From: a virus
Direction: 5' to 3' (one strand)
Length of the DNA stretch: 64,000 nucleotides
Virus record (IMG/VR): IMGVR_UViG_3300045988_179014
Location: 280,890 to 344,889 of that record
Part shown: positions 1 through 56,557 of the stretch, piece after piece
Position numbering within the stretch: the stretch's first letter is position 1
How the letters are laid out: the number at the start of each line of letters is the position of its first letter
Program-made: the position numbers and the translations under genes
Notes under the pieces: model-generated
Told to the model about the DNA's origin: nothing
What the model saw: only the letters and a program-made list of their open reading frames with translations
Database searches by the model: none

Positions 1-494
1 TGCTCCAGATGAATATAACGTGTACCAACTATCCGCTGATTCTGCAAAATCCCACTGATACTATGTTCGGCGGCCAAACTGCGACACATTCGTTCCAATA
101 CGGCTTGATACACATTGAGTGGTACTGTAGTGGACGTAACCAACTGTTTCCAATCTGACTTCCACATCAAAGGTGCCGAAACATCTGACTCCAGTAGTTG
201 TTCCATACGGTGGGTCAGGAGGGATAGTGCCACTGTTTGTTCAATCATGGTCATCATGTTGCTCTCCCTCCTCATACCCCTACTATTGCCATCTGTTTAA
301 CTGACAAAAACTTATGTTTTCAGTTTACATGATGAACTCCTGTTTGTATATAGTCCTGCCATGGATAAAATAGGGTAGTTGTTAAGAGAAACCATACTCA
401 TGTTGTGTTCGTCTCTTGTGGAAGTAAAAACTACTGAACTTGCCACATCTGGAACTAAACTATGGGTTTTATACTGTTAATTATTGTCGAATAG

Positions 495-1169
495 TTGATT
501 TTTGTGAAACTTGTTGTAGCGGAATGTTCAGCCATCTATAGTGGTCGGGGTGATACCACACTGGCACGCGGTCGCAGAGCCATCATGATTAAAGGTGATG
601 GTTCAGTCTCAATTCACAATGATGTGGGCAACAAACCGTTGAACTACATGAAACAACCCACTTTCTCTGAAACATTGAATTCTGACGGAGAAAGGGTATG
701 GACTTTTGATGCTCGTCATGAATCCTTATCCATCACACTTCATCAAGTTGTTTTGGAAACAGCAATGGATTTGATTGGTGAACATGACCCTGGTTTGGTA
801 CGTGATGGGACTGAAAACCAATTACAAGCATGGATTGCCGAACACCCTGAAGTACTTGGTGAAGGTTTTAGTCTGGTGAAACGTGAATACCCAACAGAAA
901 ACGGACCTGTGGATTTACTGGTTTTGGACAACATGGGTCTTCCTGTTGCTGTGGAGGTCAAACGTGTTGCTATGTTGGGTGCAGTTGACCAAGCCAGAAG
1001 ATACATGGATGCGCTGAAAAGCCAACCCTACAATCCTGAGCTGCCTTTTGATTTGACACGTACTCGGGCCATGATTGCAGCAGTTGACATCAGACCAAAA
1101 ACGATAGCTTTGGCGGAAAAACGAGGAATCGCGTTACGAACCATTCCTAGTGATTGGAAAACACTGTAA
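495..1169 (+). CDS. nucS: Mismatch-specific endonuclease NucS (EndoMS)
   Basis: The 224-aa ORF is collinear with mycobacterial NucS from start to end. It starts MIFVKLVVAECSAIYSGRG and carries the RecB-like C-terminal motifs GPVDLLVLD and VAVEVKRV. Confidence 0.8.
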   Translation: MIFVKLVVAECSAIYSGRGDTTLARGRRAIMIKGDGSVSIHNDVGNKPLNYMKQPTFSETLNSDGERVWTFDARHESLSITLHQVVLETAMDLIGEHDPGLVRDGTENQLQAWIAEHPEVLGEGFSLVKREYPTENGPVDLLVLDNMGLPVAVEVKRVAMLGAVDQARRYMDALKSQPYNPELPFDLTRTRAMIAAVDIRPKTIALAEKRGIALRTIPSDWKTL

Positions 1170-1339
1170 CAAACATTGACACAAAATATTTCACCAAACA
1201 GACTCTTCACATTAGCTGATACATACTGATTCAGTTCTTCAGACATGTTGAAAATTGAAAGCATTACATGTTCTCTTATGAATTAATTTCAGGGATTCAC
1301 CAATGTAGTCAGTTCAACATAAATCAACACTGATGCTTG

Positions 1340-1489
1340 CGTACCCAGAAGTGTTTTTAGCTTGGTTTTTGTGTTTCCTGATTAGGTATCACAAACTAGG
1401 ATTTCTAACAAAACCTCTTGAAAACATGAAAAATACCCCTGAATAAGCTAGGTAGAATCTAACCTATTCAAGGGGCGTTACAAAAAGCG
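1340..1489 (+). repeat. Copy 1 of a roughly 150-bp intergenic repeat family
   Basis: It reads cgtacccagaagtgttttt...ttcctgattaggtatcac...gaaaaatacccctgaataagctaggtagaatctaacctattcaaggggcgttacaaaaag. The other two copies (16661-16811, 55881-56010) are about 75% identical and in the same orientation. Confidence 0.75.
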
Positions 1490-1630
1490 ATTATGGCTTT
1501 GGAAGAAAACCCTCCAGCAACCAAAATATACATTGTGAACCATGCAATCGTCTTAGTCCTGCTAATAACAATATTTTGATTGTTTTACTTGTTGAATAAT
1601 GACAATCCTCTGTATCTTCTGTTTGTACAA

Positions 1631-2110
1631 TCAACCAATTGTTTTCCACATCACTTGTATGGTTGAATAAAGTGGGTCGTCTTCAATGTTGTCATATTCA
1701 CAGAAGAAAATCTTTTTGGAGCCCCATTCAGAAACAACAACACCCATGTCTTCCTGTCCTGTACAGTTTGTTTCAGTAGGTGGGAGCGAAACAGCAGTTG
1801 GTATTTTGCTATCACGCACGGCTTCTCGGTATTGCCCAACCAAATCCAAATCTACTGTAGCCCCCTTGGATGTACTACCGTCACTGTACAAAGCCACAGA
1901 TTCCTCATCACAATAGACAACATCACCTCGCATTTTGCAGGAACGTTTCATCAAAGTGGCAATGGTGTCCTCAGATGGTTTCGGAAATGATGATTCTGTC
2001 CCATATGATGGAGTTGGTTCAGGTGATGATGACTCTGCGCTGGAAGAACAACCACCCACTCCTATCAAACAACACAAACCAATCAATCCTGTCACAATTC
2101 GTTTCAGCAT
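1631..2110 (-). CDS. Hypothetical lipoprotein with Ser/Pro-rich linker
   Basis: It has an N-terminal signal peptide with lipobox LIGVGGCSS followed by a low-complexity S/P/E-rich segment. No enzymatic motif was recognised. Confidence 0.45.
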   Translation of the reverse strand: MLKRIVTGLIGLCCLIGVGGCSSSAESSSPEPTPSYGTESSFPKPSEDTIATLMKRSCKMRGDVVYCDEESVALYSDGSTSKGATVDLDLVGQYREAVRDSKIPTAVSLPPTETNCTGQEDMGVVVSEWGSKKIFFCEYDNIEDDPLYSTIQVMWKTIG

Positions 2111-2157
2111 AAAACATGTCCCCTTCTTTTCACATACGATTGTTCTAAATATGCAGA

Positions 2158-2544
2158 TTACAATGATGCTTCGGCTAGTAAACGAGAAACCGCTACTATA
2201 TCAAATCCACGACTAAATTCTAGGTGAACTTGTCCTACACTGCTGTACCATAAATCCACTTCACTGTCCAAATCGACTGTTCCTGCCGTTTCAATGGACC
2301 AAGCTTGCAGTTTTTTGTACGGTAATGACGCGAATGCTTTCTTGGTGCCCGTCATGCCTTGAACATTCACAACAATAACGCGACGATTGGTAAAAACCAC
2401 ATAATCTCTTATTCCTTTGGCAGCAATCATAATGGTTTCATGATTGACCAGCAAAGGTTGAATATTTGCTTGAACTTCAACAGGATTAACTGGACCAAGT
2501 TTTACCAATGAGGAGTTTTTGAAATCAATCATGGCTTTCTCCAT
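2158..2544 (-). CDS. Bacterial PH-domain (bPH-like) protein
   Basis: The 128-aa ORF shows a pattern like RDYVVFTNRRVIVV that is reminiscent of YdbT/bPH domains. This is a weak assignment. Confidence 0.35.
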   Translation of the reverse strand: MEKAMIDFKNSSLVKLGPVNPVEVQANIQPLLVNHETIMIAAKGIRDYVVFTNRRVIVVNVQGMTGTKKAFASLPYKKLQAWSIETAGTVDLDSEVDLWYSSVGQVHLEFSRGFDIVAVSRLLAEASL

Positions 2545-2735
2545 TTCCGTAAAAGTAACGAATTATAGTTAAATCTTTCAACACATAGATTTTCTGGCAT
2601 CAAGCAGAAGAACCACAAGTATTCAATATTGGTTTATGATGATTCGATAAATAGATTCATTTCATCATAAACAATTTGTCTTTAACATATCTTTTAAACC
2701 GCTTAAGGATATCCTACAATTTGTTGATTATCGGG

Positions 2736-3926
2736 TCATCGTCTTGAAGAACGCCAAGAACCAGTCAACTTCCTGGCGGTATCAGTAATGGTTGCAATTT
2801 GTTCCTGAGTCAATCCAAACATTTTGTACAATTGTGGTTCCAATGGGCGGTTCCAACGAATGTGTGGATTGTCGCTGGAATAATCACCCAAGTCCGGAAC
2901 AAAAACACCCCAACGAGCTGATTTTCCACCACGACTTTCCTCCAACAAATACCTTACAAAATCAGTGTCAATATAAGCTTTGTAATTGTTGGCTTCTTCC
3001 TTGGTCGCAAAAGTCCCCACCATGAGCCAAGAAGCACCAACAATATGCTCATTGTCAACAACACGATAACTGGAAGTGGCAGGACGTTTACTTATCTGCC
3101 CTTGAGAGGACAGAACTTTCCATGATTCCATCAACTGGGTTTTTTCTGAAGTCCAATCCAAGAGAGAACCATCAATCCAATACTCCTGAACCCGTTTCTG
3201 TTTACCTGGAATATTGTTCCCCAAGTAAGCACGAACTGGACGAATGAAACGACCAGACCCTTCATGTATATTTCTCACTGCATCAGGATTCTGCTCCACC
3301 CAATTAGTGGGAAGACCAAACGCATTCACTTTGCAACGTCGCATGCTCACACTGTTGTAACCTTGTGCAAAAATTGTTTCCACAATATTCACAGCATCCC
3401 GGCTCAATGGCAGAATCTCTTTGTTTTTTGGGCGATTGACAGCGATTCCGTTAAGTTCTAAATGATTTGGTGTTTCATTGTTATTGTTCACAGTGACAAC
3501 AGCGACCCCATCCGGAATCGCCACACCTGGAAACAATGGGACCACAGAGCTTTCTTCACCATGAGGAAACCAGTCAATACTGATAGCAGATGAAAAAATG
3601 CGATTGGCAACACCATCATATCCTTTAGCGCGCTGCATCCAACGCCCCCCAGGAATAATTACCGAACCATGAATGCCCACATCAGCCACCAAATCATAAA
3701 AACACGGGAAAACACTGACCACATTACTGTCCCGACCTGATGTTGTTGGGGTACCAGTTGAATACTGATACGGTGGGTTGCTCGCTACAAAAGTATAATC
3801 AATGCTGTTGTCATTTTCCATGAGTTTCAGAGCTTCTTCAATCTGCCCGTTCAGCAGTAGAGTAGCTTTCTCCTCAACCGTCAAAGTGTTCATACTGTAG
3901 CTCCTTGACTTGGTTTCAACACCCAT
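2736..3926 (-). CDS. N6-adenine DNA methyltransferase C-terminal portion (motif IV NPPY to motif VIII, then a presumptive target-recognition domain)
   Basis: The motif FVASNPPYQY lies about 50 aa from the listed N-terminus. It is followed by FYDLVADV...GSVIIPGGRWM, which matches motifs V-VIII of gamma-class (Eco57I/TaqI-like) methyltransferases. No AdoMet-binding motif I is present in this ORF. It overlaps the upstream helicase ORF by 37 nt in another frame. Confidence 0.6.
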   Translation of the reverse strand: MGVETKSRSYSMNTLTVEEKATLLLNGQIEEALKLMENDNSIDYTFVASNPPYQYSTGTPTTSGRDSNVVSVFPCFYDLVADVGIHGSVIIPGGRWMQRAKGYDGVANRIFSSAISIDWFPHGEESSVVPLFPGVAIPDGVAVVTVNNNNETPNHLELNGIAVNRPKNKEILPLSRDAVNIVETIFAQGYNSVSMRRCKVNAFGLPTNWVEQNPDAVRNIHEGSGRFIRPVRAYLGNNIPGKQKRVQEYWIDGSLLDWTSEKTQLMESWKVLSSQGQISKRPATSSYRVVDNEHIVGASWLMVGTFATKEEANNYKAYIDTDFVRYLLEESRGGKSARWGVFVPDLGDYSSDNPHIRWNRPLEPQLYKMFGLTQEQIATITDTARKLTGSWRSSRR

Positions 3927-6900
3927 GCCATCAAACGCCTCATTTCTTCTTCAGACAATTTGCGTTTAACACCTGTATTGGTTGACACTTCAGCACACCT
4001 CAATGAACGTTGAATCTCCACCATATCCACTACTGTAATATTCAAGTCATAATCTTTACACCCTGCCAATACACGTTGCGCTATGGCTCTACCCTGTTGA
4101 CTACGAGAATTCACGAAAACCCTGTTCTCAACAATTTGTTTCCAGAGTTTGCGTTGAGCAACAGAATCCATGTCACGAACTGTTTTACCTGATTTCTGAA
4201 TTTCATGCATAAACATGTTCAAGGCGGCATACAACGGATAAAGGCCGGTTTTGGAGCTTGGGTCAAAGAATGTGGTGCTGTCCTGTCCCCACAAAACATC
4301 GTATTCGTCATTCCCTGTATGATTCCATTGAGGTTCTGGTTTCAACACCCCTTGACTGGAAACCACATCATCCCAGGAGTGCGTATTACCATCAGAGCAG
4401 TACCAGTTGCCTGTATCATCAACGAACCGAATCCCGTTGAAAGCATTCCCCATGTGCCTGTTCACAACCGCCCATGGAGTCAGTACAGTTTCACGGTCAG
4501 GATTACGGAAACTGGTAAACAGCTGTGTCAAATGTGCCGCTCGTTCCAGTGGGTCACAAGCATCTAAATCCAACACCTGTTCTCTCATCTTCGCACAAGC
4601 CCCATTGAAAACATCAACATCAAAATATGCCTTCACCACATCCCACATGTTCCGAGTAAACCCCTGAGGCATGAACTCGTCCCATGAAGTATCATCAATA
4701 TGGGTAGCAAAATTGTCAACTGTAAGAGGTTCTTTAGCTTCACTGGCAAAAATGAGCAAAGGAAGCCGCGAAGCAACAGCACGCAGAGTTTCCAAAATCA
4801 ATTGCGCATTTTGCTGGTCTTTAGCTTTGCTCTCATATGCATTGTTCACATCTGCATTGGTAACAGATTCATCACCTTCCAACAGCAGAATCCGTTTTCC
4901 TTTACGTGTCAGTTTGGACGCTGCAATACTGATTTCTTTTTTGGAGCTGTTGATGTTCAATGCTTGACGAATATCCTCCAGCTCTTTTGCTTGGGCCTTA
5001 GTTATGTCATGAATATTCAGGTCAAACAGTTTCCGGTGTGTAAAACCAGAGGAAACAATTTCAGCAATGAATACACGACGTAGTTCTTGCAACAAACTGT
5101 CAACATCATGTTTCACAAATCGTGCACCGTCATAGGAAATGATGGGCATATATGTCAACATGTCACCCAACACAGATGATTCTCTGTCATCTTTGTTCCT
5201 GTTCTTCTGTGCAATACCACTGGCGGTTTTCTCCAACATTTTCAATGAACGGTCTGGTGCGAAGTCGAAAACATACCCAACCTCTTTCTGACGCCCATCA
5301 GCCAAACTACCAACTGATTTGACCCGGAAAATGGTCTGCATATACTGGAGAGGTGAAGCCATGTTGCTGAGCATGAAAACAGCCGTCCACTCAGGTACAG
5401 TGGTTCCAGTAGTCAGTTTTTGCGCGGACAATGTGATAGTGCGTTCATTTTTGCGAATCGCTTCTTTAACTGCCAACAACGCGTCTCCGCCATCATTGTC
5501 ACCTGTTGCATTCACCACTGCAAATTCTGGATGTTGTGCTGCCAACATTTCATGCAATGCCACACATGCATCCACCGATGGCAACATCCAAAACGTATGA
5601 GCAAAATCAACTTTCGAATTGTTCCGGCTGAAAGGGAACAATTTATGGTCATCTTCATACTCATCATTGTAGAATATGAGGTTCAATAATTTTGCCACAT
5701 CTCGTGGGTTCTTGAACGGAGAAAAACTGTCATATACTCGTCCTTGAACTGAACGATTTTTGTCTATTTCAAAAAACTTTGCAAAACTGAAGTTGATTTT
5801 GCCATTTTCGAACGCATCGGCTACATCTGGGTTTTTGAGAGTGTCCAGAATGTCGTAGTGTCGGATTTCAATTCGTGGCAGCATTCCATATGGATTAACT
5901 TCTCCCGGGTATGGAACAGGGGCATGTTCTCCCAGTTCGTCCCATTGTTTACGAGCCAATTCCCAACGCTCTGAGGCACGCTGTTCATCAATATAATCCC
6001 AGTTGAAAACTTTATCATCAAATTCGTCAATGATGTTGAAAGGCGTTCCTGATAAATACAACCAGTAACGCCCCTGTAAGTTGTTCGCCAAACGTTCCGC
6101 AATTGGAGTTTTTGTTCCCTCATGACCCTCGTCCACAATAATCAAATCAAATTGCGTTGAGAACAGTTGAGCATTCTTTTCAAAAACGTTCTCTATTTCA
6201 ACAGAATCCTTGTTTGCTTCATCATTGACTCCAAACGACCCTCGAAGGTCTTGGATAGATGCAAAATAGTAGAATGGTTTTTCGCGGTCCAGTGAATCCC
6301 ATGAAACCCCGTACAGATTTTGTTTAGCACCGAACTGCCAATCAGATTTAGCCCCATACATTTTACGGAAATCTTCACTCCATCCAGCTGCAACCACAGG
6401 ACGATGAGTGATGATGAGAACTTTGCTTACATCCGGCATGGATTGCACCAGACTGTAGGATGTAAGCGTCTTCCCAAAACGCATGATGGCATTCCACAGG
6501 AACTTTTTGGGGCGTTCTACCGTACCTGACCGAAATATTTGTAGTGTTTCCGCTACTGCTCGTTTTTGTTCTGGACGTAAAACGATTTGTAGGGGCTTCT
6601 CGTCCATGTTGTCAATGAATGATTTGCGACCCTGTACTGCTTTGAATGCTTCAATGGCATTGTTCAGAGAAACCTCAAACCACTCTCCCGCGTTCTTGTC
6701 TTGACGGATGAATCGTTTTGAAAACCCTGACCGCAACAAAACTTCATGCACTTGGTAATCCCTGAACGCTTCATAACGTCCTGGAACTGAACTGGAGCGA
6801 ATACTGAGTGCCGTAAAAAGCAGTTCATATTTGACGTCAGCCGTTTTTGTCTGCTCGTCAATACGTGCTCGGGCTGCGGATTCAATTTCAGGCGATGAAA

Positions 6901-7078
6901 TCAAATCCCCATCAACCACTGTGGCTTCAGCTCGAATCTCTTCCAATATTTTAGAAGTGTGGTAAGTCGCATCCCCAATCTTCAACCGTCCTTGATGGTC
7001 CTGGTCGTTGATTGTATATATGTATAAAACCTTATAACTACCTGGAGACAAAGCTGTGTCCAGAATCGTAGCCGTCAT
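3890..7078 (-). CDS. Fusion protein: T5orf172 (GIY-YIG-like) N-terminal domain + SF2 (ResIII/SNF2-like) helicase + N-terminal part of N6-adenine methyltransferase (motifs X and I)
   Basis: The N-terminus YKVLYIYTIND...GRLKIGDAT resembles the T5orf172 domain. Helicase motifs are I AIMRFGKTLTS, II LIIVDEGHEG and III YLSGTPF. Near the C-terminus, TPWAVVNRHM resembles methyltransferase motif X and FFDPSSKTGLY is a weak motif I. A good SD-less start faces the 300-bp intergenic region. Confidence 0.6.
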   Translation of the reverse strand: MTATILDTALSPGSYKVLYIYTINDQDHQGRLKIGDATYHTSKILEEIRAEATVVDGDLISSPEIESAARARIDEQTKTADVKYELLFTALSIRSSSVPGRYEAFRDYQVHEVLLRSGFSKRFIRQDKNAGEWFEVSLNNAIEAFKAVQGRKSFIDNMDEKPLQIVLRPEQKRAVAETLQIFRSGTVERPKKFLWNAIMRFGKTLTSYSLVQSMPDVSKVLIITHRPVVAAGWSEDFRKMYGAKSDWQFGAKQNLYGVSWDSLDREKPFYYFASIQDLRGSFGVNDEANKDSVEIENVFEKNAQLFSTQFDLIIVDEGHEGTKTPIAERLANNLQGRYWLYLSGTPFNIIDEFDDKVFNWDYIDEQRASERWELARKQWDELGEHAPVPYPGEVNPYGMLPRIEIRHYDILDTLKNPDVADAFENGKINFSFAKFFEIDKNRSVQGRVYDSFSPFKNPRDVAKLLNLIFYNDEYEDDHKLFPFSRNNSKVDFAHTFWMLPSVDACVALHEMLAAQHPEFAVVNATGDNDGGDALLAVKEAIRKNERTITLSAQKLTTGTTVPEWTAVFMLSNMASPLQYMQTIFRVKSVGSLADGRQKEVGYVFDFAPDRSLKMLEKTASGIAQKNRNKDDRESSVLGDMLTYMPIISYDGARFVKHDVDSLLQELRRVFIAEIVSSGFTHRKLFDLNIHDITKAQAKELEDIRQALNINSSKKEISIAASKLTRKGKRILLLEGDESVTNADVNNAYESKAKDQQNAQLILETLRAVASRLPLLIFASEAKEPLTVDNFATHIDDTSWDEFMPQGFTRNMWDVVKAYFDVDVFNGACAKMREQVLDLDACDPLERAAHLTQLFTSFRNPDRETVLTPWAVVNRHMGNAFNGIRFVDDTGNWYCSDGNTHSWDDVVSSQGVLKPEPQWNHTGNDEYDVLWGQDSTTFFDPSSKTGLYPLYAALNMFMHEIQKSGKTVRDMDSVAQRKLWKQIVENRVFVNSRSQQGRAIAQRVLAGCKDYDLNITVVDMVEIQRSLRCAEVSTNTGVKRKLSEEEMRRLMAWVLKPSQGATV

Positions 7079-7568
7079 AAGGTATTCTCCTCTTAGTTGG
7101 TTGCATATTTATGAGGAATCATAGAAACCTCAAAGTTACACTAGCAAACTCCATTTTATTTGTCAAATACATAGAACTATAAGTAATGACAAAACTGATG
7201 ATTTTACATAATGCTCATCATCGTTTTCATCCTGTTCAGACATCTTGTTTCACCATGTTGTGTTAAACTGTCATCATCCTTGAATGGCATTAACCACAAA
7301 TAATGAATGAAGATTCAATTGTCAACATTTCATCACCACAGCATCATATGATGACATTTTGACGCAATGGAATCAAAACCATGGACCAAACCTGTAACGA
7401 CACAACGAAAGCAAAACATACGTTGTTTCATACCAGCCAACTTATTTCAACTGCGAATCGTCGTCCCCTTGTATTCATGCAAGTTTGTTTTTGTGCTACA
7501 AGAAACATGAGAAAAAGAAAGAATCATTCCAGTTGTGATAATTGTTTGAATTTGTCACAACCCAACAG

Positions 7569-8024
7569 TCAAAGAATGAAAACGTCTGTATCCATTTCTG
7601 AAGTACCATTGTTTCCCACAATATAAGTCACAGGGCTGGTCATCAGTAAGAAGTCATCTGTTACTGTATTTCCCGGATGAGCAAACAACGCTTTTTCTCT
7701 TGTCTGCAAATTGACCAGTACCATGTTGACATATAGATGATACTGACCATTGGATTGCTCTTGTTGCACCACCCAATGATTGGATTCAGGTAAAGGACAT
7801 ATTGTATACACACTTTTACTGAGAGTTTCAAATCTCATGGATGGAGGAACAGGCGATGTTCTCTGCAAATCTTTCATCACAGACACCCCATAATTGTTCA
7901 TGATGATGCTGTCAGCTGCCATCAATGCCATCTCGTAATCATTGAATCGTTGGTATGAACCATTGTCCCCTGACCATGGAACTGGATGAATATGCCCATG
8001 AGGATGTAAAACATATTTACTCAT
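7569..8024 (-). CDS. Hypothetical protein
   Basis: This is a 151-aa ORF on the strand of all its neighbours. No motifs were recognised. Confidence 0.35.
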   Translation of the reverse strand: MSKYVLHPHGHIHPVPWSGDNGSYQRFNDYEMALMAADSIIMNNYGVSVMKDLQRTSPVPPSMRFETLSKSVYTICPLPESNHWVVQQEQSNGQYHLYVNMVLVNLQTREKALFAHPGNTVTDDFLLMTSPVTYIVGNNGTSEMDTDVFIL

Positions 8025-8189
8025 ATTGAAACCTCCTTGGTTGATTCAATTTGTCACATGTTTCACCTTGTCGTCTAACCAATATGTGTACCCAAGTCCT
8101 GTAAACATTGTATACAAATCAGTACAGGGCAGATGAGAACTGATTGAAGCCCCCGTCCGCCCTGTTTGTTAGGTTGTATGATTTTGGTT

Positions 8190-9653
8190 TTACTTCTTCT
8201 TAGGTTTGACCCAGAAAACTCGTGACAGAATTGTTTGGTCCTGTTCTTCGTAAGTGGAGTGTTTTTTGATGGTTGCAGATGAAATTGTGACATTTCCGTC
8301 TTCATCAGATGTTACAGGTTTTGGTGAGAAGTAAACAATTTGGTGCCCATCATCATCTACCATGGTTATACGGTATTTGATGATTTCGTAACCGCGATAA
8401 TCACGTGTTTGATATGGGGTACTATCCACTAGGTTGTATTTAGTACCTTTCGGAATCTTGTCTCCTACTTGCCCCACATAACCCGACTTGAACAATGCTG
8501 CACGTTCTTCTTTGGCTTTTTCACGTGCAGCTTTCTCCGCTTCTCGGCGTAGTCTGTTTTTCTCACGTTTGATGCTGGCAACACCTGAAACAAGCAAAGC
8601 AACTGTTTTAGGGGAAACATAGTCACTGGCTATCGCAGTTTTCAGATTGTTCACGTAATCATTTGAATCATCCATTTTGTTGATGAGTGATTTCAATGCA
8701 GCAACTTGCCCACTTTGGATATACCCTGCGGCTTTGTCGGCCATTTCATTTCGCCATTCTGAATCCACTTGTTTACCACCGAAAATTGCGTTGTCCACAT
8801 CATCCACAGTAGCCGACCCATAACCCCAGGAACGTGGAATGAAGTTGTCTCCACCATCAGAAACAGCCAACGCAAACGCCAAGGTCTGGTCCACGTTCCG
8901 AGCGCTATAAGGACCAAAACCTTCAGACTTTCCAGGGTTTTTGAGTTCGTCCAAATCGTCATACTCAAGTGCCCACAATCCTTTTGGTTTGAGTCCCAAG
9001 TATGCTTCTACACAAGTTGAACCAATTTGTTTACGGTTACCTTCTTCATCTTCAATGAGATAGGTTTTAGCACGAGACCGTTTCTGCCCACAATGCTCAC
9101 AATACATGGATTCAGGACGCCAACCACCCAATTCGACACCTTCAGCAGTACGTGTTATGAAACCACCCTGTTCCTTGTCCATTACAGCCAAGAATGTGTA
9201 TCCATTGTAAGAGATTTTTGGTTCGCTCAATTCAATGTCATAATAAACATCTGCCCATTCAACCAGAACCCCATCACGCATTTCAGAACGTGGTACAAAA
9301 CGTTCTTTAACAGCCATCTCGAATCGTTCATCAATGCCTGCTTTTTCAAGTCTACGGTTGGCTTGAGCAATTGATTTCTCAGCTTCTTCCAGTTTGTCAG
9401 CTGCAATACTGAAACGTGACCTTGTGTAAAAATCGTCAACTGTTTCATGTTTAGACAAGGCTGTTAAAGTCTGAGCATTCATTGAATCTTCATATGCAAC
9501 TTGCGCATCACCAAAACTGTTGTAATGTTCTCCACCAGTTTCTTTTGTTACTGGACAGTTTCCTGGTTGTGCTGTACATGGTTTGGGGCCATCATCTGTT
9601 ATGTGAAACTTGCCGCTCATGATACTCCTCCACACATAATGAGGTATTATCAC
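8190..9653 (-). CDS. Hypothetical protein with Cys-cluster (YCEHCGQ...GSTC) and C-terminal coiled coil
   Basis: This is a 487-aa ORF. It has a possible zinc-binding CxxC...C cluster and a basic/acidic heptad-like segment KREKNRLRREAEKAAREKAKEE. The family is unknown. Confidence 0.45.
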   Translation of the reverse strand: MIIPHYVWRSIMSGKFHITDDGPKPCTAQPGNCPVTKETGGEHYNSFGDAQVAYEDSMNAQTLTALSKHETVDDFYTRSRFSIAADKLEEAEKSIAQANRRLEKAGIDERFEMAVKERFVPRSEMRDGVLVEWADVYYDIELSEPKISYNGYTFLAVMDKEQGGFITRTAEGVELGGWRPESMYCEHCGQKRSRAKTYLIEDEEGNRKQIGSTCVEAYLGLKPKGLWALEYDDLDELKNPGKSEGFGPYSARNVDQTLAFALAVSDGGDNFIPRSWGYGSATVDDVDNAIFGGKQVDSEWRNEMADKAAGYIQSGQVAALKSLINKMDDSNDYVNNLKTAIASDYVSPKTVALLVSGVASIKREKNRLRREAEKAAREKAKEERAALFKSGYVGQVGDKIPKGTKYNLVDSTPYQTRDYRGYEIIKYRITMVDDDGHQIVYFSPKPVTSDEDGNVTISSATIKKHSTYEEQDQTILSRVFWVKPKKK

Positions 9654-9686
9654 TAATCTCTAAAAACAAACCAAGTATAATCGCAA

Positions 9687-10652
9687 TCATTTTTGAAGTA
9701 CGAATCGTGTGGCATCAATACCAGCTCGTGCCCCATCACCCACTGCAATGGCAACTTGACGATGTTCTGGTTTGGTAACATCCCCAGCTATAAAAAACCC
9801 AGGAACATTTGAACATTGAATGAATCCATCTGCAAACAAAGTTACATGAGGTTTTGCAATACTAGAATTCGGCTCCTGTCCAATAGCCACAAAAACCCCA
9901 GTAACCGATAGTTGCCGGCCATCATCAAGTTGTACTGATTCCACTGAGTCAATGCCATCAATAGAGACAATGGATGATTCCATGGATACTGTAATTCGAG
10001 GATGTGTCAACAGTTTTTGCACTGCGGGTTCAGTTGCTCGCCATTTTGAACTTCGCACCAACACATGAACTGATGACGCTACTTGTGCGAGGTATAGTGC
10101 ATCCTCTACAGCTGTTTCTCCACCTCCAACAACTGCTACATGCTCATCCTCAAAAAACAAACCATCACATGTGGCACAATAAGAAACACCATCAAGATGC
10201 TCCCCTGGTATGCCTAATTTCCGTGGGGTGGAGCCAGTAGCAAAAACAACTGATTTGGAAAACATTTTTTCACCAGAAACCAATTGAAGCATAAACCCAT
10301 TATTGTGTGTTTCAATGGTGTCAACTGTTTCGTGTAATAATTGTGCCCCAAATTTTTCTGCATGTGATAAAAACGCATCGGCCAGTGCACTTCCTGTATA
10401 ATCTGGCAGTCCAAGGTAATTGTCTATCTCCTCTGTGGAAAGCAATAAACCACCTTGTGTTTCCCCTGTCAGAACCACAGTTTTCAATCCCGCACGACTG
10501 GTGTATAATGCTGCGGACAAACCAGCAGGTCCAGAACCAACAATTATTGTGTCTATCACTCGTAATCCTCCATATGTTTCAGCAAGTATTTTAACGAAAC
10601 ACCACTGAAGCGAGATTGATGTTTTGTCTGAAGATGTCTTACACCCAATCAC
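9687..10652 (-). CDS. trxB: Thioredoxin-disulfide reductase
   Basis: It has an FAD motif IIVGSGPAGLSAA, a redox-active CATCDG and an NADPH motif VAVVGGGETA. The true start is probably downstream of the listed M, near VIDTIIVGSG. Confidence 0.85.
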   Translation of the reverse strand: MIGCKTSSDKTSISLQWCFVKILAETYGGLRVIDTIIVGSGPAGLSAALYTSRAGLKTVVLTGETQGGLLLSTEEIDNYLGLPDYTGSALADAFLSHAEKFGAQLLHETVDTIETHNNGFMLQLVSGEKMFSKSVVFATGSTPRKLGIPGEHLDGVSYCATCDGLFFEDEHVAVVGGGETAVEDALYLAQVASSVHVLVRSSKWRATEPAVQKLLTHPRITVSMESSIVSIDGIDSVESVQLDDGRQLSVTGVFVAIGQEPNSSIAKPHVTLFADGFIQCSNVPGFFIAGDVTKPEHRQVAIAVGDGARAGIDATRFVLQK

Positions 10653-11977
10653 AATTCATCATCTGGTGACGACACATCAAGACCTTCCATATGCATTAGT
10701 AAAGACAATGGCAGTTTTGTTTCACGGTACAATTCCAAAACCTCTTTAATCTCAGGTCCTGTGAACCTTTTGTAAGCATATAGTTGATTGTAGTGGTCCC
10801 CTTCAGCTGGGAGGACTTCCGGCAAATCTTTTAGCAATGCCTCAAAATCTTTCTCGTCCCATTCCAAAAACGCCTTATAAACGGGGAAAGAATTAAACAA
10901 CATCCAAGATATGTTAGAAGGATTGCGAATGTCCACTTTATCCACTATTTTATTTGCCAATGCTACTAATTGTTCCTGTTCAGAAGCAGTAGCAATACGT
11001 TCCACAACAGTGGAAAATAGTACATTATCAGTTGGTTTGGCTGGACGGATGCCTTTTCGCAATCTGCTCTCTAGAAACTCTCCCACTTCAATAGGGTCAT
11101 GTTCTTGGATGGTTTGGAACAAAATCAACGCATCCTCAATTGCCATGGGAGCCGCAGATAAACCAGGTACAGGAACATGTTTATTCCAGTTGTTGGCATC
11201 ATCCCACAGATAGATGGTCCAATTAACCACTAAATTTCTAATCTCTTCCCTCATCTCAGCCGAAAAACCGAGAAGTGAAGACAATGGCAGTTTTTGGCCA
11301 AATGCATTGGGAGCAGTTTTTCCATTTTCTCCATTGAAGAAAGCCACCAAAGTGTTCATCATCAAACGCTCTTCCCATATAAATGGGGAATTGGTGTCTC
11401 CTGCACGAATACCAGGACACAAGGGAAAAGTTGGAAACAAATACCCAAAAGCGGAGTCAAAATCCAATTGAGACACATTGGGTGCTATTGGATGAGTTTC
11501 AGCAGCTTCCAACACTAAATTCTTGGCATCATTGAAAACATTCTCCTTTGCTGACAGAAAACACAGGAAACTGGCAATAGCACACCATTTGGCGCCAGGT
11601 TCCAATGATTGTGAGAGTATCCACTCAATTGTTTCTTTGCAATCTGGAGAATGTGGATAATACTGAAGTTCCCTGTATGGGGTTTGGACCCGATGAGTTA
11701 CTCCCGGGTTTGGCATTCTAATTGTCCCCATAACATCAATGTATTCTAGTAATGCATCAATGATAGGTTCTAGCAAACCATCATCCTCCAACAAACCACC
11801 ATTGTGAATACTGAACAAGCGTACCAAGTCACTGGAATCTGTTTTCTTGTGAGCCCGGAAGCGGCGAGGGTGTTTTCCCATGTAAGCATAGATTACCGCT
11901 ACTCCAGTCCCCAGAATAATTCTGCGTATCAGCCCACGGTCACGGATTTCTACTGGGTTACGCATTGAACTAGACAT
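10649..11977 (-). CDS. Hypothetical protein (442 aa)
   Basis: This is a long ORF in the operon orientation. Its stop overlaps the start of trxB. No motifs were recognised. Confidence 0.45.
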   Translation of the reverse strand: MSSSMRNPVEIRDRGLIRRIILGTGVAVIYAYMGKHPRRFRAHKKTDSSDLVRLFSIHNGGLLEDDGLLEPIIDALLEYIDVMGTIRMPNPGVTHRVQTPYRELQYYPHSPDCKETIEWILSQSLEPGAKWCAIASFLCFLSAKENVFNDAKNLVLEAAETHPIAPNVSQLDFDSAFGYLFPTFPLCPGIRAGDTNSPFIWEERLMMNTLVAFFNGENGKTAPNAFGQKLPLSSLLGFSAEMREEIRNLVVNWTIYLWDDANNWNKHVPVPGLSAAPMAIEDALILFQTIQEHDPIEVGEFLESRLRKGIRPAKPTDNVLFSTVVERIATASEQEQLVALANKIVDKVDIRNPSNISWMLFNSFPVYKAFLEWDEKDFEALLKDLPEVLPAEGDHYNQLYAYKRFTGPEIKEVLELYRETKLPLSLLMHMEGLDVSSPDDEL

Positions 11978-12367
11978 ATGAAAGGCTACCTCTCTGAAGC
12001 AATATTGGTTTCATCATCAACAATAGCATACAATCTGTTCCTGAGCTACTCAGAACATCATAAAAACATAGCCTGTTCCAAAGATATTTCGCTATTCTGT
12101 ATCATAAAATCGTAGTATTGGGGAAACGAATTTGCATGACTCAGATTCTAAACGTCTATTGTTTTTGACAGTCCAACGATTTTAAGTATTCAATATATCA
12201 AGGATTGAAAAGGATATGTTTCCACTCATTGTAATCATTGTTTATTATTGACAACTGATTACACAACGGAAACATATCCTAATAACTTAATATACTACAT
12301 ATTTTTAACTGATGACTGAATCAGATGATGTTCTAAAAACTACTAATTAACTGTTAACGTGTTTTGT

Positions 12368-12718
12368 TCATGAGTCTAAAGAGTGCTCTAAACACATCAA
12401 GCTTACTGTGTCTCCATAACGTTCATAATTTTGGAGCCATTTGACTTGCCGGGACATCTGCAACAATGATAAATAATTCAAACCCTGACCGTTTCCACTT
12501 TGAATCAGCTGTTCAAGCGCTTTTTCCAAAGTGTTGGCCAGGGTTTTTGTTTTCGAACGTGCTGGATTCGTCCCGAGCACCCCAAGACGTTTGGCAATGC
12601 CTGCAATGGTTGCTCTCTCCCAGATTGATTGAATCGTAGCATCATTATAGTCATCATCAATGGTTGTTGAATCTTTGATGTCAGACTCACAAAGTGGATG
12701 GTCCAACAAAACACTCAT
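12368..12718 (-). CDS. Hypothetical protein (116 aa)
   Basis: The ORF is on the strand of its neighbours. The function is unknown. Confidence 0.35.
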   Translation of the reverse strand: MSVLLDHPLCESDIKDSTTIDDDYNDATIQSIWERATIAGIAKRLGVLGTNPARSKTKTLANTLEKALEQLIQSGNGQGLNYLSLLQMSRQVKWLQNYERYGDTVSLMCLEHSLDS

Positions 12719-12940
12719 AATCGGTCTCCTCTGAACTAGGAACTAATAACAAACATGTAGTTTCATCAGTTCGTGGCAGGTAGGCGAGACTGATTAAATT
12801 ATCTACAATCACCATAATAGACAACCGCGTCCAAACAAGTCAAATCATTCTTCAAAAATGTTTATGCTAAAATAACAACAATATTTAAAAACCATGAAAA
12901 CAGAAACCATAGTCTTACCAAAACGCCAGTAAAATCAATG

Positions 12941-13429
12941 TTATTGGTTTGTGGAAGCGATACCGGTCGAGTCTTTGTGTTCCCAGAGTTTCATCAAACC
13001 GTTACGAACTCTGTCCACGTCATCAGGGGTACCCAATAATTCAAATGAGTACAGTAGGGGAATTTGAAGTTTACGACTGATGATTTTACCAGCCAATCCA
13101 AAAGCGGTACCAAAGTTAACATTTCCAGCTGTAATCACACCCAAACAATGTGAACGATTGTCAACATCATTGAGAAACTTAATCACTTGTTTAGGAACTG
13201 CTCCTTTTACTTCCCCACCACCATAGGTAGGAACCACCAATACATATTCCTCATTAACATGCAGAAAAGGGTCTTTTGCCCTCAACGGGATTCTCTCACT
13301 TGGAAAACCCAATTTCTCCACAAACCGTTTAGTGTTTTCTGTGACGGATGAAAAATACACCAACTTGACCATTACATACCTTTCGTCTGAATCTCTCAGT
13401 AGTTTAACCAATGAAGGAACCAAGAGCAC
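12941..13429 (-). CDS. nrdI: NrdI flavodoxin-like protein
   Basis: The motifs [42 protein letters not shown] and [13 protein letters not shown] match NrdI. The likely start is MVKLVYFSS near 13369. No nrdE/nrdF gene is adjacent. Confidence 0.7.
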
Positions 13430-13540
13430 CAGAACACACCAACCACTTCATCCTGTTAACACTGTTCGTTTTGTTGGAGATAAAGTGACAGTGTTTCAAT
13501 TAAGAATCAAAGTATGTATCCATTGAGGTTGTTGTATATG

Positions 13541-14779
13541 TTACAGAACCCCTCTGAAAATGTTGGCAAGGTCCGAGATGATGATAAGACTCATGAAAAT
13601 CAGCACAGGAACGCCAGTAATAATTGACATGGCGCCCATCCCGCGTGGACCGATAGGACGATAGACACGACGAGTCAATTTACTGAAACCCATTTTCACA
13701 CTATCCAGCAACGCCATGAAAATGCGTCCACCATCCAACGGCATCAATGGAAGAAACAAGTTGATGAAACCCAATCCGATGTTCAACAATCCAGAATACA
13801 TGAGCATCATCTTGAATTTGTTACCATCAGTCAATCGTGTGGATGCAGTGGTGTCACCATATGTTTTCCCCACTGCCACAATAGACGATGGAGCTTCTGC
13901 ATCCCGTTCTGTTGTGCCCAGAATATTATTCACCAGGCCAGGAATTTTGGATGGTAGTTTTGCCAATGATTCCGTGTTGAGAACAAACAAGTTTTTCATG
14001 GCTTCAACAGATTCACCAAAAGTTGCTGTTCGTTCCACACTTGCAAGATTGATACCAATTTTTCCGTTGGTTACTGGTACTGTAAAAGTCTGTTGTGAAC
14101 CGTTACGTTCCACTACAACAGACACTTGGTTTTGATTTGCAAGTAGTGGACTGATTTGGCGACTGTTTTCCACAGGGGTCCCATTAATGCTAACAATGTT
14201 GTCCCCTGGTTGTAATCCTCCTCGTTCCGCACCACATGATTCCCCTGCTTTTATTTGTTCACAACTGTTTACTGTATCAATTCGATTACTGATGAAATTG
14301 CTGGGAAATGCCATCAATATGGTTATTAGGATTGCTGCACCCAGAATCAGGTTCACCACAGGCCCCGCCATGAAAACCAGAATACGTTTCCAAGGTGATA
14401 CATGAGACAACAAGTTCTTTCGAGCCTCGTAATCATCCAAGAGTTTTTGACGTTCCTTCTCTGTCTTTTCTCTTGTCTCATCATCAATGTTGGATTGAGC
14501 CAATATGTCATCATAAACAGATGTATCTGGTTTGGGTGTTTTGTCATCCTCAATCAACACGAATCCGCCCAATGGAACAGCTTTGACCCCATATTCTGTG
14601 CTTTTGTGTTTACGAGAGAATATTGTGGGGCCAAATCCGACGAAAAATTTTGGCACATGCAGTTTCACAGCTTTGGCAACAACCATATGACCTGCCTCAT
14701 GAAGACCAATGGATACAACCAATATGACCAAGAAAATAATCAAACCACATATCCAGGCCAAACTTTCCGTCAACTGCAT
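13541..14779 (-). CDS. rseP: RIP site-2 zinc metalloprotease RseP/Rip1
   Basis: It has HEAGHMVVAK (HExxH) in the first TM region, a PDZ-like middle region, and an LDG motif PLMPLDGGRIF. It has multiple TM segments. Confidence 0.85.
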   Translation of the reverse strand: MQLTESLAWICGLIIFLVILVVSIGLHEAGHMVVAKAVKLHVPKFFVGFGPTIFSRKHKSTEYGVKAVPLGGFVLIEDDKTPKPDTSVYDDILAQSNIDDETREKTEKERQKLLDDYEARKNLLSHVSPWKRILVFMAGPVVNLILGAAILITILMAFPSNFISNRIDTVNSCEQIKAGESCGAERGGLQPGDNIVSINGTPVENSRQISPLLANQNQVSVVVERNGSQQTFTVPVTNGKIGINLASVERTATFGESVEAMKNLFVLNTESLAKLPSKIPGLVNNILGTTERDAEAPSSIVAVGKTYGDTTASTRLTDGNKFKMMLMYSGLLNIGLGFINLFLPLMPLDGGRIFMALLDSVKMGFSKLTRRVYRPIGPRGMGAMSIITGVPVLIFMSLIIISDLANIFRGVL

Positions 14780-15016
14780 GATTCAGGCTCCTTTGTTAAT
14801 CGTTCAGTACTGAATATTACAGACCTGAATATTAGGACTGCTTTATCAATATCCCAGAATTATTCATTCCTACGCTATCAAATACGTTTCCAAAATCAAT
14901 CACAACTTTATACAGAATTTGTTTACATGATGAATGAAACCAACTGACCTCATTACAGCTCATTCCAAATACTTATGACAAACATACAGAAAACTGGCCG
15001 ATAATATTTTCTTACA

Positions 15017-15874
15017 CTATGGGGATTCAACCACTAGAAGAGCATTGCTTGAAGGCCAAATAACTGTTCCATCTGAAGACATGATACGTACTTTGGATTT
15101 CAGGTGTTCTATATAGCCTGATTGAACATACTGCTCATGATGCAATATGGTGAACTTGTGTTGTGACAACAATGCGAGATAATCCAGTTCAGTCAATATT
15201 CCATACATTTCCTGTACTTCACGGATTGCTGATTCTGGTCCCCATGTATATGTGTACACTATTTCCATTGCAGACCCCAGATTGCCAATCCAATTGTTTG
15301 GGCCGCTTTGCTGCAAGTTTACGGTCCATGAACTGAATGAATCAGACCAGAAGGGAGAATTGTCAGCATAGTAACACACAAAATCGTCTCCATCAGATTG
15401 CAGGAATTGCACCATTACTGAATCAGACCAATTGGAGGGTTTGATACCGTCACGTATGACAAGACGACCCCCTGGACGAAGTAATCGACGAAAACTAATC
15501 AATGCGTTGTTCACGTCAATCAAATCACCAGGAACATGAAATGCTTCCCCATATGAATACACTTCATGCATTATTGAGGAACACACAACATTGTCAAAAC
15601 TGTTTTCAGGAAACAATGAATCCAATTCAGCTACATGTCCCAATACCCCGTGAATATTGTCATATTGTTGGATACGCGTTTGTGATGATGGGGATGCATC
15701 CAAAGCATAGGTTTCATATCCATGATTTGCCATGATGTGTGACAGTTTGCCGCTACCTGCTCCAACATCCAGAACTGAACCAGGTACCAGCCAATCCAAA
15801 ATATGCTGTTTATCTCCTAATGATGCTTCCATCCGCTGAAAATATGTTGCATCATGACTATCAACCATCACCAT
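15017..15874 (-). CDS. Class I SAM-dependent methyltransferase
   Basis: Motif I is VLDVGAGSGKLS and motif II-like is TYALDAS. The substrate is unknown. Confidence 0.6.
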   Translation of the reverse strand: MVMVDSHDATYFQRMEASLGDKQHILDWLVPGSVLDVGAGSGKLSHIMANHGYETYALDASPSSQTRIQQYDNIHGVLGHVAELDSLFPENSFDNVVCSSIMHEVYSYGEAFHVPGDLIDVNNALISFRRLLRPGGRLVIRDGIKPSNWSDSVMVQFLQSDGDDFVCYYADNSPFWSDSFSSWTVNLQQSGPNNWIGNLGSAMEIVYTYTWGPESAIREVQEMYGILTELDYLALLSQHKFTILHHEQYVQSGYIEHLKSKVRIMSSDGTVIWPSSNALLVVESP

Positions 15875-16060
15875 GAATATGTTCTCTTCCTTTGTTTGTT
15901 TTTGGTAACAAGTATACTAAGCATACATTACACAATTGGAACATCATACTAGTAGTGGTTGAAGAAACAATAATGGTTCACATTCCATCACGCTCTTTAA
16001 AAGTGAATATTATGGAGTGTGAACCAACAGATTACCGCTAAACTTGTATAAGAATGCGTC

Positions 16061-16441: not shown

Positions 16442-16660
16442 ATTTTGTTCATATACAGATTAGCGCAACACATACAAATAATCAACTATCAACAAGTGTT
16501 TACACATCACCTCAAGTAGTAGTGGTACATTGCATTAGGCTCTGCGTATCAAAGCGAAAGATGATAAGAACAATCAAGTAAACAACTATACGTGAAACTA
16601 ATGAAATTTGAAGTTGGGGTAATATTCAAGTTCTGTTTGCATTTACACATATATTCATGA

Positions 16661-16811
16661 CGTACCCAGACGTGTTTTGAGTTTAATTTTCTCGTTTCCT
16701 GATGCAAGTATCACGAAGAAGCATTTCGCGTAAAACTTCTTAAAAATATGAAAAACGTCCCCGAATCGGCTTGGTAGAATCTAGCCTATTCAAGGGACGT
16801 TACAGAAAGAG
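16661..16811 (+). repeat. Copy 2 of the roughly 150-bp intergenic repeat
   Basis: It reads cgtacccagacgtgttttgag...ttcctgatgcaagtatcac...gaaaaacgtccccgaatcggcttggtagaatctagcctattcaagggacgttacagaaag. Confidence 0.75.
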
Positions 16812-16946
16812 ATTTGCAGCACAATTTGACGTACCAAAATCCAACAATATTCAGGCCATAGTAATAGATTCTGACTCTAACATCTCAGAAGAGTATTCTT
16901 CATCTGTGTTGGTACGCAAGAATAGCCTCCACATGATAAATGGTTG

Positions 16947-23401: not shown

Positions 23402-23466
23402 GTACTTTTCCTCTATTTAGACCAATCTTTACTGGGTTTCTTCCGAATAATGGTTTTACTCGGTTG

Positions 23467-55660: not shown

Positions 55661-55880
55661 ATTGTTCCACCTTTCCGGTTAGTCGTCCCCACCAAAGCAC
55701 TTATCTTCATGATAGTGTAAACTGATTTCATTTTCAAACTGTTGACACTATTGATTCCATTGTCCTAGATGTCAACAACAAAGACAAAGATTGTGCATTC
55801 TTCAATTTAAACCAAGATAGTATGAATCAGCAGAGTCAGCATTCGTATATGTCAACATGCATGAAGCCCCGATTCGTTAA

Positions 55881-56010
55881 CGTACCCAAAGCCGTTTTGA
55901 GCGTGATTTTTGTACTTCCTGATGTAGGTATCACAAACAAGAATTTCTCACAAAACCCCTCAAAAGTACGAAAATTACCCCTGAATAAACTAGGTAGAAT
56001 CACTCTTATT
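55881..56010 (+). repeat. Copy 3 of the roughly 150-bp intergenic repeat (3-prime end diverged)
   Basis: It reads cgtacccaaagccgttttgag...ttcctgatgtaggtatcac...gaaaattacccctgaataaactaggtagaatcactc. It lies inside the listed ORF 55822..56184, which I regard as spurious. Confidence 0.7.
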
Positions 56011-56557
56011 TGGGTGACGTATCAGGATGCATTTTTAAACGCTTGCGACCGCTGTTGTTTTGACTCGATTGTTCGCTTTCCAGATGAACTTGCAAATTTT
56101 GGTGGCACCTTTGCAACAAGGATTTTCTCCGTTACTCATGTTGTTAGTATTTTTACATGGAAACCAGTGTTTGAGGAAAGATAATTAAAAATGATGTCAA
56201 CAGTAGGTAATGAATCTCGTATAGGATTTGTTCCGTCAGATTCAACTTAACACTACTGATAAGACGAGTGCGAAGCAGGAAGCACGAAAGGGTTAAGGTC
56301 TTACAAATCCAGCGCTTGTTTTAAATCAACAAAGCTCCTTCTTATTCGTGTGTTTGAGTTCTGGGAATTAGATGAATTGAATAAATAAAGGCAACATATA
56401 TTCAGATACATTAATCGTCGTCCCCCGTATCGCCATCATATTGTTGTCATAACCTTACTGTAAACGCACGTTACAAATGACAGCACCACCTTCAACATCA
56501 GCCTGAGAACACGGTACATATCTTATGAAGTAGTAGAGTATACCTTATGTTGACAAT

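Follow-up and report, generated by a model that had tools for sequence, protein, structure and literature searches.

What role can be assigned to an intergenic element of about 165 bp that occurs three times, always in the same orientation, within a 64,000-nucleotide stretch of DNA filed as viral (IMG/VR record IMGVR_UViG_3300045988_179014, positions 280,890 to 344,889; hereafter the window)? A preliminary description, made from the letters alone, had drawn attention to the three copies and to a near-palindrome embedded in them, and had proposed a small non-coding RNA gene family, a shared regulatory cassette or a miniature repeat element, with the palindrome as an operator or a structured RNA stem. 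Our current working hypothesis, to which we would give a probability of roughly 60%, is that the element is a conserved multi-copy terminator/insulator module, read on the minus strand, whose copies have been homogenized within the genome.

The copies lie where they had been reported. With a profile made from the three of them, nhmmer placed them at 1336-1498, 16657-16820 and 55877-56033 (E = 5e-52 to 7e-49), and neither this search (nothing else below E = 0.01) nor a covariance model of the element (R1) added a fourth copy in the window. Pairwise identities among the three are 75.9%, 73.3% and 67.9%, compared with the earlier figure of about 75%. The sequence past either end is unrelated between copies, and the homology stops sharply. 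All of the blocks quoted in the preliminary description (cgtacccaRa, gttttgag, ttcctgat..aRgtatcac and gaaaa..cccctgaata..ggtagaatc..tattcaagggg.cgttaca) are there, and in the alignment the invariant blocks (GGTAGAATC, GTATC, TTTC, AAAA, GAAAA, GAAT, TATT and CGT) are separated by hypervariable stretches. The three copies are all intergenic, as had been stated; the open reading frame (ORF) 55822-56184, which lies over the third, is spurious, because the same frame is broken by stop codons in two orthologous contigs. Coding potential was ruled out on these grounds and because a 12-codon frame in one part of the element (the tail, below) is lost in the second and third copies; no reading frame is conserved between the copies, as read off the alignment.

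Further copies were collected by pattern scans and look-ups, and sites were told apart by comparison of their flanks; the number of sites is a lower bound. The family comprises nine distinct sites (A to I) and more than 16 sequences, all from a single lineage and with unrelated flanks. Loci on other contigs carry the letter L and a number.

Site A: first window copy (copy A), L133, L121
Site B: second window copy (copy B), L130
Site C: third window copy (copy C), L126, L129
Site D: L121:4338-4504, 6.5 kb to the left of the window
Site E: L125, L134, L136
Site F: L127, L128
Site G: L131
Site H: L132
Site I: L141, where the hairpin side runs off the contig

Every full copy scores 110-134 bits with covariance model R1. 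Lengths run from 150 to 170 bp (typically about 165), GC content is about 40%, and copies are 68-90% identical over 165 nt. The element is thus a genuine multi-copy family and not a product of chance, as had been proposed; it has at least nine sites in the lineage and no similarity to the end of an insertion sequence (IS) or to a decayed gene, so that the grounds on which the preliminary description would have given up its claim do not apply. Rfam gave no match in the window at gathering score, and a permissive search with two copies gave best E values of 0.57 and 1.3, to unrelated families and far under their gathering scores. Copy A had no blastn match in the phage and plasmid collections searched. 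A 17-nt pattern run over 596 Gb of genome contigs returned chance matches only, with the element in none of 120 loci, the pattern being too short. Sites A and H have 23 further nucleotides in common past the tail end (ATCAACACTGATGCTTGCGTACC; window 1313-1335 and L132:93-115), which may mean that the consensus falls short of the full length of some copies.

The strand on which the element functions appears to be the minus strand, opposite to the one on which it was first described. The RNAalifold consensus fold reaches -13.2 kcal/mol on the minus strand, as against -4.5 on the plus strand, and consists of four helices. Read on the minus strand, the element starts with CCUGUAACG and enters H2, a hairpin of 17-20 bp whose 7-nt loop and closing pair, GAUUCUACC, are nearly invariant. 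A U tract follows directly (5-6 T in the first 9 nt in 15 of 15 copies, reading UUUUUC; UUUUUUG in the copy at site I), and then a tail of about 100 nt, 42-49% U over the first 55 nt after H2, which contains further hairpins and invariant blocks. Among the former is H3/H4, an imperfect hairpin of the form CAAGA-GUUUU-NNNN-GAAAU-CUUG with a variable tetraloop (in copy A UCRUG..CAAGA-GUUUU-NNNN-GAAAU-CUUG..UGUGA); among the latter are GUGAUAC and AUCAGGAA, which pairs back to the 5' CCUG and so closes the whole domain as H1 (CCUG(U) with CAGGA some 100 nt away). The site C copies apart, in which it is degenerate, H2 has a free energy (dG) of -19 to -26 kcal/mol and z scores of -3.8 to -6.3 against shuffled sequences. 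The parts of the window copies are as follows.

1332..1501, minus strand: copy A, whole (nhmmer with a 15-sequence profile, which widened all three copies to the limits listed here; R1, 123 bits)
1435..1476, minus strand: hairpin H2 of copy A, 16-17 pairs, 7-nt loop AGAUUCU, dG -23.5 kcal/mol, z = -6.0
1428..1434, minus strand: U tract UAUUUUUC of copy A, directly 3' of H2, with 6 T among the first 9 nt
1389..1429, minus strand: H3/H4 of copy A, imperfect hairpin in the U-rich tail (RNAalifold; 95-99% of cells paired)
1376..1380, minus strand: 3' strand of H1 of copy A, CAGGA within the nearly invariant tail block, pairing with 1481-1485 (UUUUG/CCUGU)
16655..16820, minus strand: copy B, whole (nhmmer; R1, 127 bits)
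Within copy B, minus strand: H2 16757-16798 (dG -19.6 kcal/mol), T tract 16750-16756, H3/H4 16711-16751, H1 16697-16701 with 16803-16807
16821..16946, minus strand: remnant of a 165-aa gene preceding copy B (blastn, sequence comparison)
55874..56039, minus strand: copy C, whole (nhmmer; R1, 114.5 bits)
Within copy C, minus strand: H2 55977-56018, T tract 55970-55976, H3/H4 55931-55971, H1 55917-55921 with 56023-56027 (folding); H2 has a dG of about -7 kcal/mol in all three site C strains

The near-palindrome of the preliminary description, AGGTAGAATCTAACCT in copy A, is real, but it is merely the apex of the much longer hairpin H2. The suggestion of a structured RNA stem likewise stands, although on the other strand and as a 17-20 bp hairpin with a T tract, whereas the idea that the palindrome is itself an operator found no support, the stem having the structure of a terminator. 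The two strands are clearly unequal as carriers of the fold: on the minus strand 95-99% of alignment cells are paired (95.7% for H1), including 123 G.U pairs, and the same pairs read on the plus strand are formed in 59-73% of cells in H2 to H4; moreover, the plus strand has no T tract beside the hairpin and more mismatches. In a terminator scan of window positions 1-20000, H2 was the top-ranking candidate, and nine terminator-like sites were found there against 15.1 in shuffled sequence.

This is the anatomy of a canonical intrinsic terminator, from which we infer termination on the minus strand. H2 with its run of five or six U would act as a Rho-independent terminator that halts RNA polymerase as it comes out of the hairpin-side gene, and the tail might serve as a fail-safe zone of pausing or termination, as a platform for protein binding, or as both. 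Transcription heading for the gene on the tail side would thereby be blocked, and the module would insulate genes that are normally under tight control. The element resembles ordinary Rho-independent terminators in having a GC-based hairpin with an immediate U tract on the strand that encodes the upstream gene; an unrelated ordinary terminator of the same genome (L132:3150-3200) has an identical stem base and T tract (AAACGCCC...GGGCGTTTC). Ordinary terminators, however, show no homology among themselves, their stems measure about 10 bp, and they lack a conserved loop or a conserved 100-nt tail.

The copies within a genome are kept alike by gene conversion. Orthologous copies are only 80-92% identical, whereas their flanks are 94-100% identical, and the differences are mosaic: the 3' segment of site A in L133 is 100% identical to that of site G in L131, the 3' segment of site A in L121 is 100% identical to that of site F in L128, and the middle segment of site C in L129 is closer to site E in L134 than to its own orthologues. 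Mosaic differences of this kind, with identical segments at different sites in different samples, are the basis for invoking conversion; in the module proposed here, recombination of this sort would be what homogenizes the copies.

At two orthologous positions the element is also present in a relative with 64% GC (sample SRR22098413; 56-71% protein identity). Upstream of sbcC (L139; SbcC 56% identical), the element has the same orientation and lies in a gap of 215 nt, compared with 216 nt in L127, and it keeps H1, H2 (dG -22), a GUUUUC tract and the loop GAUUCCACC (R1 32.5 bits, E ~1e-5). Upstream of gyrA (L135) the copy is more diverged, with CGCAYCAGRAG, CTGAATA and GGCGTTMCAGG in common, and its fold is a series of hairpins (z = -4.3 for either strand). 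Since the split from this relative, two copies or more have thus kept position and orientation, and because both sites are occupied there, the element is old and under selection. The tails of the relative's two copies are more alike than either is to its orthologue, reading GCTTCCGCTGRTGCC in both and GCTTGTTTGTGATAC in the lineage of the window, a case of concerted evolution. In L135 (9840-9880), a perfect complement of one arm stands in place of the H2 loop (GCCACCTAAT-GT-ATTAGGTGGC), so that a new hairpin competes with the old; this looks like templated palindrome repair. The clade has an unusually wide spread of GC content, almost 30 points (L123 65%, L135 64%, the window 41%, L137 and L138 36-39%), and its members still share gene order and 56-72% protein identity in NucS, GyrA and SbcC.

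The genes beside the element are the next guide to its role. Six of the eight sites with a readable hairpin side (A, B in L130, D, F, G and H; the exceptions are C and E) have a co-directional gene, encoded on the terminator strand, whose end is 13-129 nt short of the hairpin. At copy A, the hairpin end faces the 3' end of a 159-aa gene (1631-2110, minus strand) and the tail end, on the low-coordinate side, looks onto the 3' end of nucS (495-1169, plus strand). At site B, an intact 165-aa gene (L130:7223-7720) stops 31 nt before the hairpin side in the orthologous contig; in the window an internal deletion of about 392 nt has left a frameshifted remnant of it. No minus-strand gene ends on the hairpin side of copy C, and it is at this site that H2 has decayed to about -7 kcal/mol. 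Convergent genes flank two of the nine sites, compared with four of 46 intergenic gaps in the window, a trend on numbers too small to carry weight. The genes on the tail side are listed here with their distances.

Site A: nucS 3' end, 162 nt
Site B: start of an unknown 126-aa gene (16061-16441, minus strand), 213 nt
Site C: start of an XRE-type multi-helix-turn-helix (HTH) gene (54758-55660, minus strand), 213 nt
Site D: recN 3' end (TIGR00634, 460 bits, above the NCBIfam cut-off), 136 nt
Site E: end of a recX-152aa operon, about 409 nt, with gyrA-ydjM-...-radA past the hairpin side
Site F: sbcC start, 35 nt
Site G: unknown gene, 47 nt
Site I: recA start (TIGR02012, 333 bits, above the NCBIfam cut-off), about 105 nt

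Core DNA-repair genes (recA, recN, sbcC, nucS, recX/gyrA) therefore adjoin five of the nine sites, and in all five cases the repair gene is on the tail side, so that the terminator is set against transcription heading for it. On the rough assumption that 4-5% of genes are repair genes, such a neighbourhood is unlikely to have arisen by chance.

Several observations weigh against a terminator/insulator module. Variation in the helices is almost wholly one-sided (G-C/G-U/A-U) and covariation does not exceed that in shuffled alignments, and it is for this reason that the structural support consists of strand asymmetry and stability. Taken alone, the hairpin is more stable on the plus strand in five of 15 folded copies (those of L130 at site B, L121 at site D and the three at site C), and an argument for the minus strand from hairpin energy alone would be of moderate strength. 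The count of six out of eight for gene orientation is not significant by itself, about 50% being expected. At site E the neighbours (the recX operon and gyrA) are all on the other strand, which leaves the terminator strand with no gene to terminate, and this discordant site is one of the two conserved in the 64% GC relative, where the L135 copy has a decayed T tract and a rebuilt hairpin. The enrichment of repair genes was noticed post hoc, among nine sites and against an assumed background of 4-5%. Finally, a plain terminator leaves unexplained the invariant loop, H1 and a conserved tail of 100 nt past the point where transcription should stop.

These leftovers (loop, H1 and tail), together with site E and the repair neighbourhood, make possible a second explanation, which overlaps the first: that the element serves a DNA-damage or repair regulon as its cis-regulatory cassette, the terminator being only one part of the element. 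We regard this as unlikely, if deserving of serious attention. A dedicated protein would, equally tentatively, recognize the tail blocks (GTGATAC, ATCAGGAA and phased repeats of GTTTT/GAAAAC), the loop, which is invariant, or motifs similar to CTCCTGG at the two ends. The preliminary description had listed a shared regulatory cassette among its options, and the repair genes at five sites give that option some substance: the tail side is turned towards recA, sbcC, nucS, recN or the recX operon there, and towards a gene for an XRE-type HTH regulator at a sixth site, and past the hairpin end of site E come gyrA-ydjM-radA. Blocks of 5-9 nt that are invariant alternate with hypervariable stretches, and paralogues co-evolve within each genome, as the two forms of the tail illustrate. 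Position, however, is inconsistent, the element lying 35-105 nt upstream of the sbcC and recA starts but 136-162 nt downstream of the recN and nucS stops, and the likely core promoters of sbcC, recA and gyrA (TAAAAT, GAGAAT or TAGAAT near the ATG) lie outside it. No LexA box, RecA-NDp motif or RDRM-like motif was recognized when the element was compared by eye with the consensus sequences; a TGAT-N6-ATCA dyad is lost in the relative; and at sites B, G and H no repair gene is recognizable.

The operators with which such a cassette would be compared, namely LexA SOS boxes, the actinobacterial RecA-NDp/PafBC motif and the Deinococcus RDRM bound up with DdrO, are motifs of 14-20 bp at promoters. 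Like them, the element is a sequence shared by recA, recN, sbcC and gyrA, with an XRE-type regulator adjoining one copy; unlike them, it is a module of 165 bp found at either end of a gene, in which their consensus motifs were not recognized by eye. A more specific proposal is that the module is a conditional terminator/insulator by which a DNA-repair regulon is defined in a clade of little-known bacteria with small genomes, a dedicated factor recognizing the loop GAUUCYACC or the H1-closed tail and switching read-through or local promoter activity at recA, sbcC, recN, nucS and gyrA/radA after damage. This seems to us quite unlikely as it stands; were it true, the regulatory logic would differ from that of LexA, PafBC or DdrO operators.

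The upstream regions of these repair genes show some features of their own. An apparent -10 hexamer (TAAAAT or TAGAAT) lies 9 nt before the sbcC ATG in both lineages (L127:8325-8347 and L139:5985-6003), and GAGAAT lies 10 nt upstream of the recA start, which suggests that mRNAs of the clade could be leaderless or nearly so. The 9-mer CACCAGAGC occurs 21-26 nt ahead of the recA and gyrA starts (L141:236-244 and L125:5788-5796); it is similar to the element-terminal CACCAGA(A/G), and either a promoter-proximal motif common to the two genes or mere chance could account for it.

A third explanation is that the element is a selfish, non-autonomous mobile repeat, akin to a MITE (miniature inverted-repeat transposable element) or to SPRITE of Streptococcus pneumoniae, with an incidental terminator-like hairpin and no host function. 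Its dispersal among unrelated flanks, a length below 200 bp and its presence between convergent genes at two of nine sites, the most enriched context of SPRITE, are all consistent with this. So are empty sites, which were met only in distant relatives: those with GyrA 60-65% identical (L137, L138) have no element at site E, where the gap is just 86-133 nt, and the GC-rich relative L123 has none after nucS, the position of site A, so that the element was gained or lost at sites A and E. To this extent the architecture fits the miniature repeat of the preliminary description, but the hallmarks are missing. The copies have no terminal inverted repeats, their ends ACGTACCCAGA and GGCGTTACAGG having only a weak gapped likeness, and no consistent direct repeat flanks them as a target-site duplication (an 8-nt direct repeat, GACGTACC, is found at site B and its orthologue and at no other site). 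No partner transposase end was seen in the DNA examined. Presence/absence polymorphism is lacking as well, all of the orthologous sites sampled (2-3 strains, flanks about 95% identical) being occupied, and two sites are fixed in position and orientation in the 64% GC genome, where neutral intergenic DNA should be unrecognizable. The MITE-like explanation is weakened by this conservation of position over a 23-point shift in GC content, and we consider it improbable, a shade more so than the conditional module above.

SPRITE is nevertheless the closest described system, a likeness judged on architecture, as given in its published description. It is a dispersed intergenic repeat of less than 200 bp with an 18-bp duplex and a long U tract of about 48% U, both exceeding those of ordinary terminators, and is found near the 3' ends of genes with enrichment between convergent ones; its 30 copies per genome are few compared with other repeats, and neither a target duplication nor an IS partner was found for it (PMC3049150). 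The present element matches it in length (150-170 bp), in duplex (17-20 bp) and in the U content of its tail (42-49%). It differs in GC content (about 40%, compared with 28% in SPRITE) and in its ends, which are CCTGTAACG and CTGGGTACG-like where those of SPRITE are AAAA/TTTT. Furthermore, SPRITE is held to be largely parasitic and is confined to S. pneumoniae and S. mitis, whereas our element keeps its position in a very divergent relative and has an invariant loop, a closing helix and repair-gene neighbours. We conclude that it is a new family within the known terminator-bearing dispersed intergenic repeats, apart from the SPRITE family itself.

Other small structured intergenic repeats, such as BOX and RUP of the pneumococcus, the Correia elements of Neisseria and ERIC and REP/BIME of enterobacteria, can affect transcription of their neighbours, and those of the Correia and BIME types can serve as terminators or as binding sites for host proteins. 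All of these have clear terminal inverted repeats and/or target duplications, or a modular boxA-B-C build, none of which was found in our element; its 5' part (GTGTTTTGAGC...GCTTCCT) presumably bears some resemblance to a boxB/boxC junction, a lead and not a result. Three further candidates were rejected. An integron attC site, with the consensus RYYYAAC ... GTTRRRY around an imperfect palindrome, was ruled out by inspection, since the core positions GAAAAAC and GTTACAG do not fit. A likeness to a clustered regularly interspaced short palindromic repeat (CRISPR) or its tracrRNA (GTTTTGAGCT...) was ruled out because the copies are solitary, that stretch is the most variable part and there is no array. 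The hypervariable stretches as guide segments were ruled out as well, as elsewhere they have only chance 11-14-mer matches.

The weakest explanation, a small trans-acting or structured RNA gene, or else a plus-strand promoter that uses the loop GGTAGAAT as a good -10 hexamer and fires outwards from the hairpin, may draw on the four helices closed by H1, on the invariant loop, on loop-like TAGAAT or TAAAAT hexamers just upstream of sbcC and gyrA in the clade, and on the direction of site E towards gyrA, but is very unlikely, because no sigma-70 promoter is conserved in the tail or on the plus strand (alignment, scan and inspection), the sequence upstream of both ends, the expected place of a promoter, is not conserved, Rfam offers no match, the minus-strand terminator is at the 5' and not the 3' end of the conserved region, no U tract accompanies the plus-strand hairpin, at six of nine sites the promoter would be directed antisense into the last part of a gene, and the loop hexamer, being TGGAAT in L139, replaced in L135 and GATAAAACC in the recA copy, is not conserved as a -10 element. 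The non-coding RNA gene family of the preliminary description finds no support either.

The DNA that carries the element is that of an uncultured bacterium of the human mouth. The nearest relatives of the window are human oral metagenome contigs, including a 345-kb ENA contig at about 95% identity across the overlap; more distant NucS, GyrA and SbcC homologues are on contigs of 0.67-0.74 Mb, and the relatives' loci range from 36 to 65% GC. A second contig filed as viral, IMGVR_UViG_3300045988_187329 (188,933 bp; loci L125 and L141), has two element copies beside recA, gyrA and radA, and its possession of these genes marks it as bacterial chromosome. Collinear with bacterial contigs, it also has a recX-like gene and a PD-(D/E)XK nuclease gene; probably this is a piece of chromosome that was misclassified, or else there is a prophage elsewhere on the contig. 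A further IMG/VR viral contig (L140) has a chance 19-mer match only, inside coding DNA. A giant phage was ruled out on account of recA, gyrA and radA on the copy-bearing contig and of type IV pilus genes and a sigma factor on related contigs; matches to PHROGs were only to helicase families or families of unknown function. The window was likewise ruled out as one of the giant oral elements called Inocles, which have 24-32% GC, compared with 41% here.

The genes of the window are chiefly on the minus strand up to about 46 kb. They encode NucS, a thioredoxin-reductase-like protein, an M50 protease, a Ser/Thr kinase and an M23 peptidase, and many ORFs have no family assignment; no transfer RNA or transfer-messenger RNA gene was found in the window. 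A 1062-aa protein (3890-7078, minus strand) with a weak T5orf172 domain and a ResIII helicase domain adjoins a 396-aa ORF without a family. At 22256-40180 on the minus strand stands a tandem array of 14 paralogous genes (324-417 aa, mutual identity 30-58%) without Pfam or PHROG match, which constitutes a large lineage-specific gene-family expansion. At 46600-50900 there are some 4 kb in which the sole ORF above 100 aa is one of 144 aa; gene orientation flips from minus to plus there, and the cumulative GC skew levels off close by towards its minimum (-2.16, near 54-56 kb). Replication may originate here, or the region may have decayed; DnaA-box matches are not enriched in it. It also contains two copies, 78% identical, of a 50-nt repeat (48532-48581 and 48737-48786) whose 3' end, TCTCAGGGGCATTGCAGGT, is similar to TTCAAGGGGCGTTACAGGA of the element; they may be distant relatives of the element or resemble it by chance, and neither its hidden Markov model nor its covariance model detected them.

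It is of interest to consider what a terminator/insulator module of this kind would mean for the lineage. In practice, it marks the ends of operons and accounts for the spurious ORF call at 55822-56184. If our reading is right, the candidate joins a short list of terminator-bearing repeats, with at least 16 sequences, a consensus structure and a covariance model, and it does so as a repeat that, unlike SPRITE, selection has held in place while GC content shifted from 41% to 64%; this argues for a host function over parasitism. Its placement by recA, recN, sbcC, nucS and gyrA would then offer a handle on how an uncultured oral lineage insulates or regulates its repair genes.

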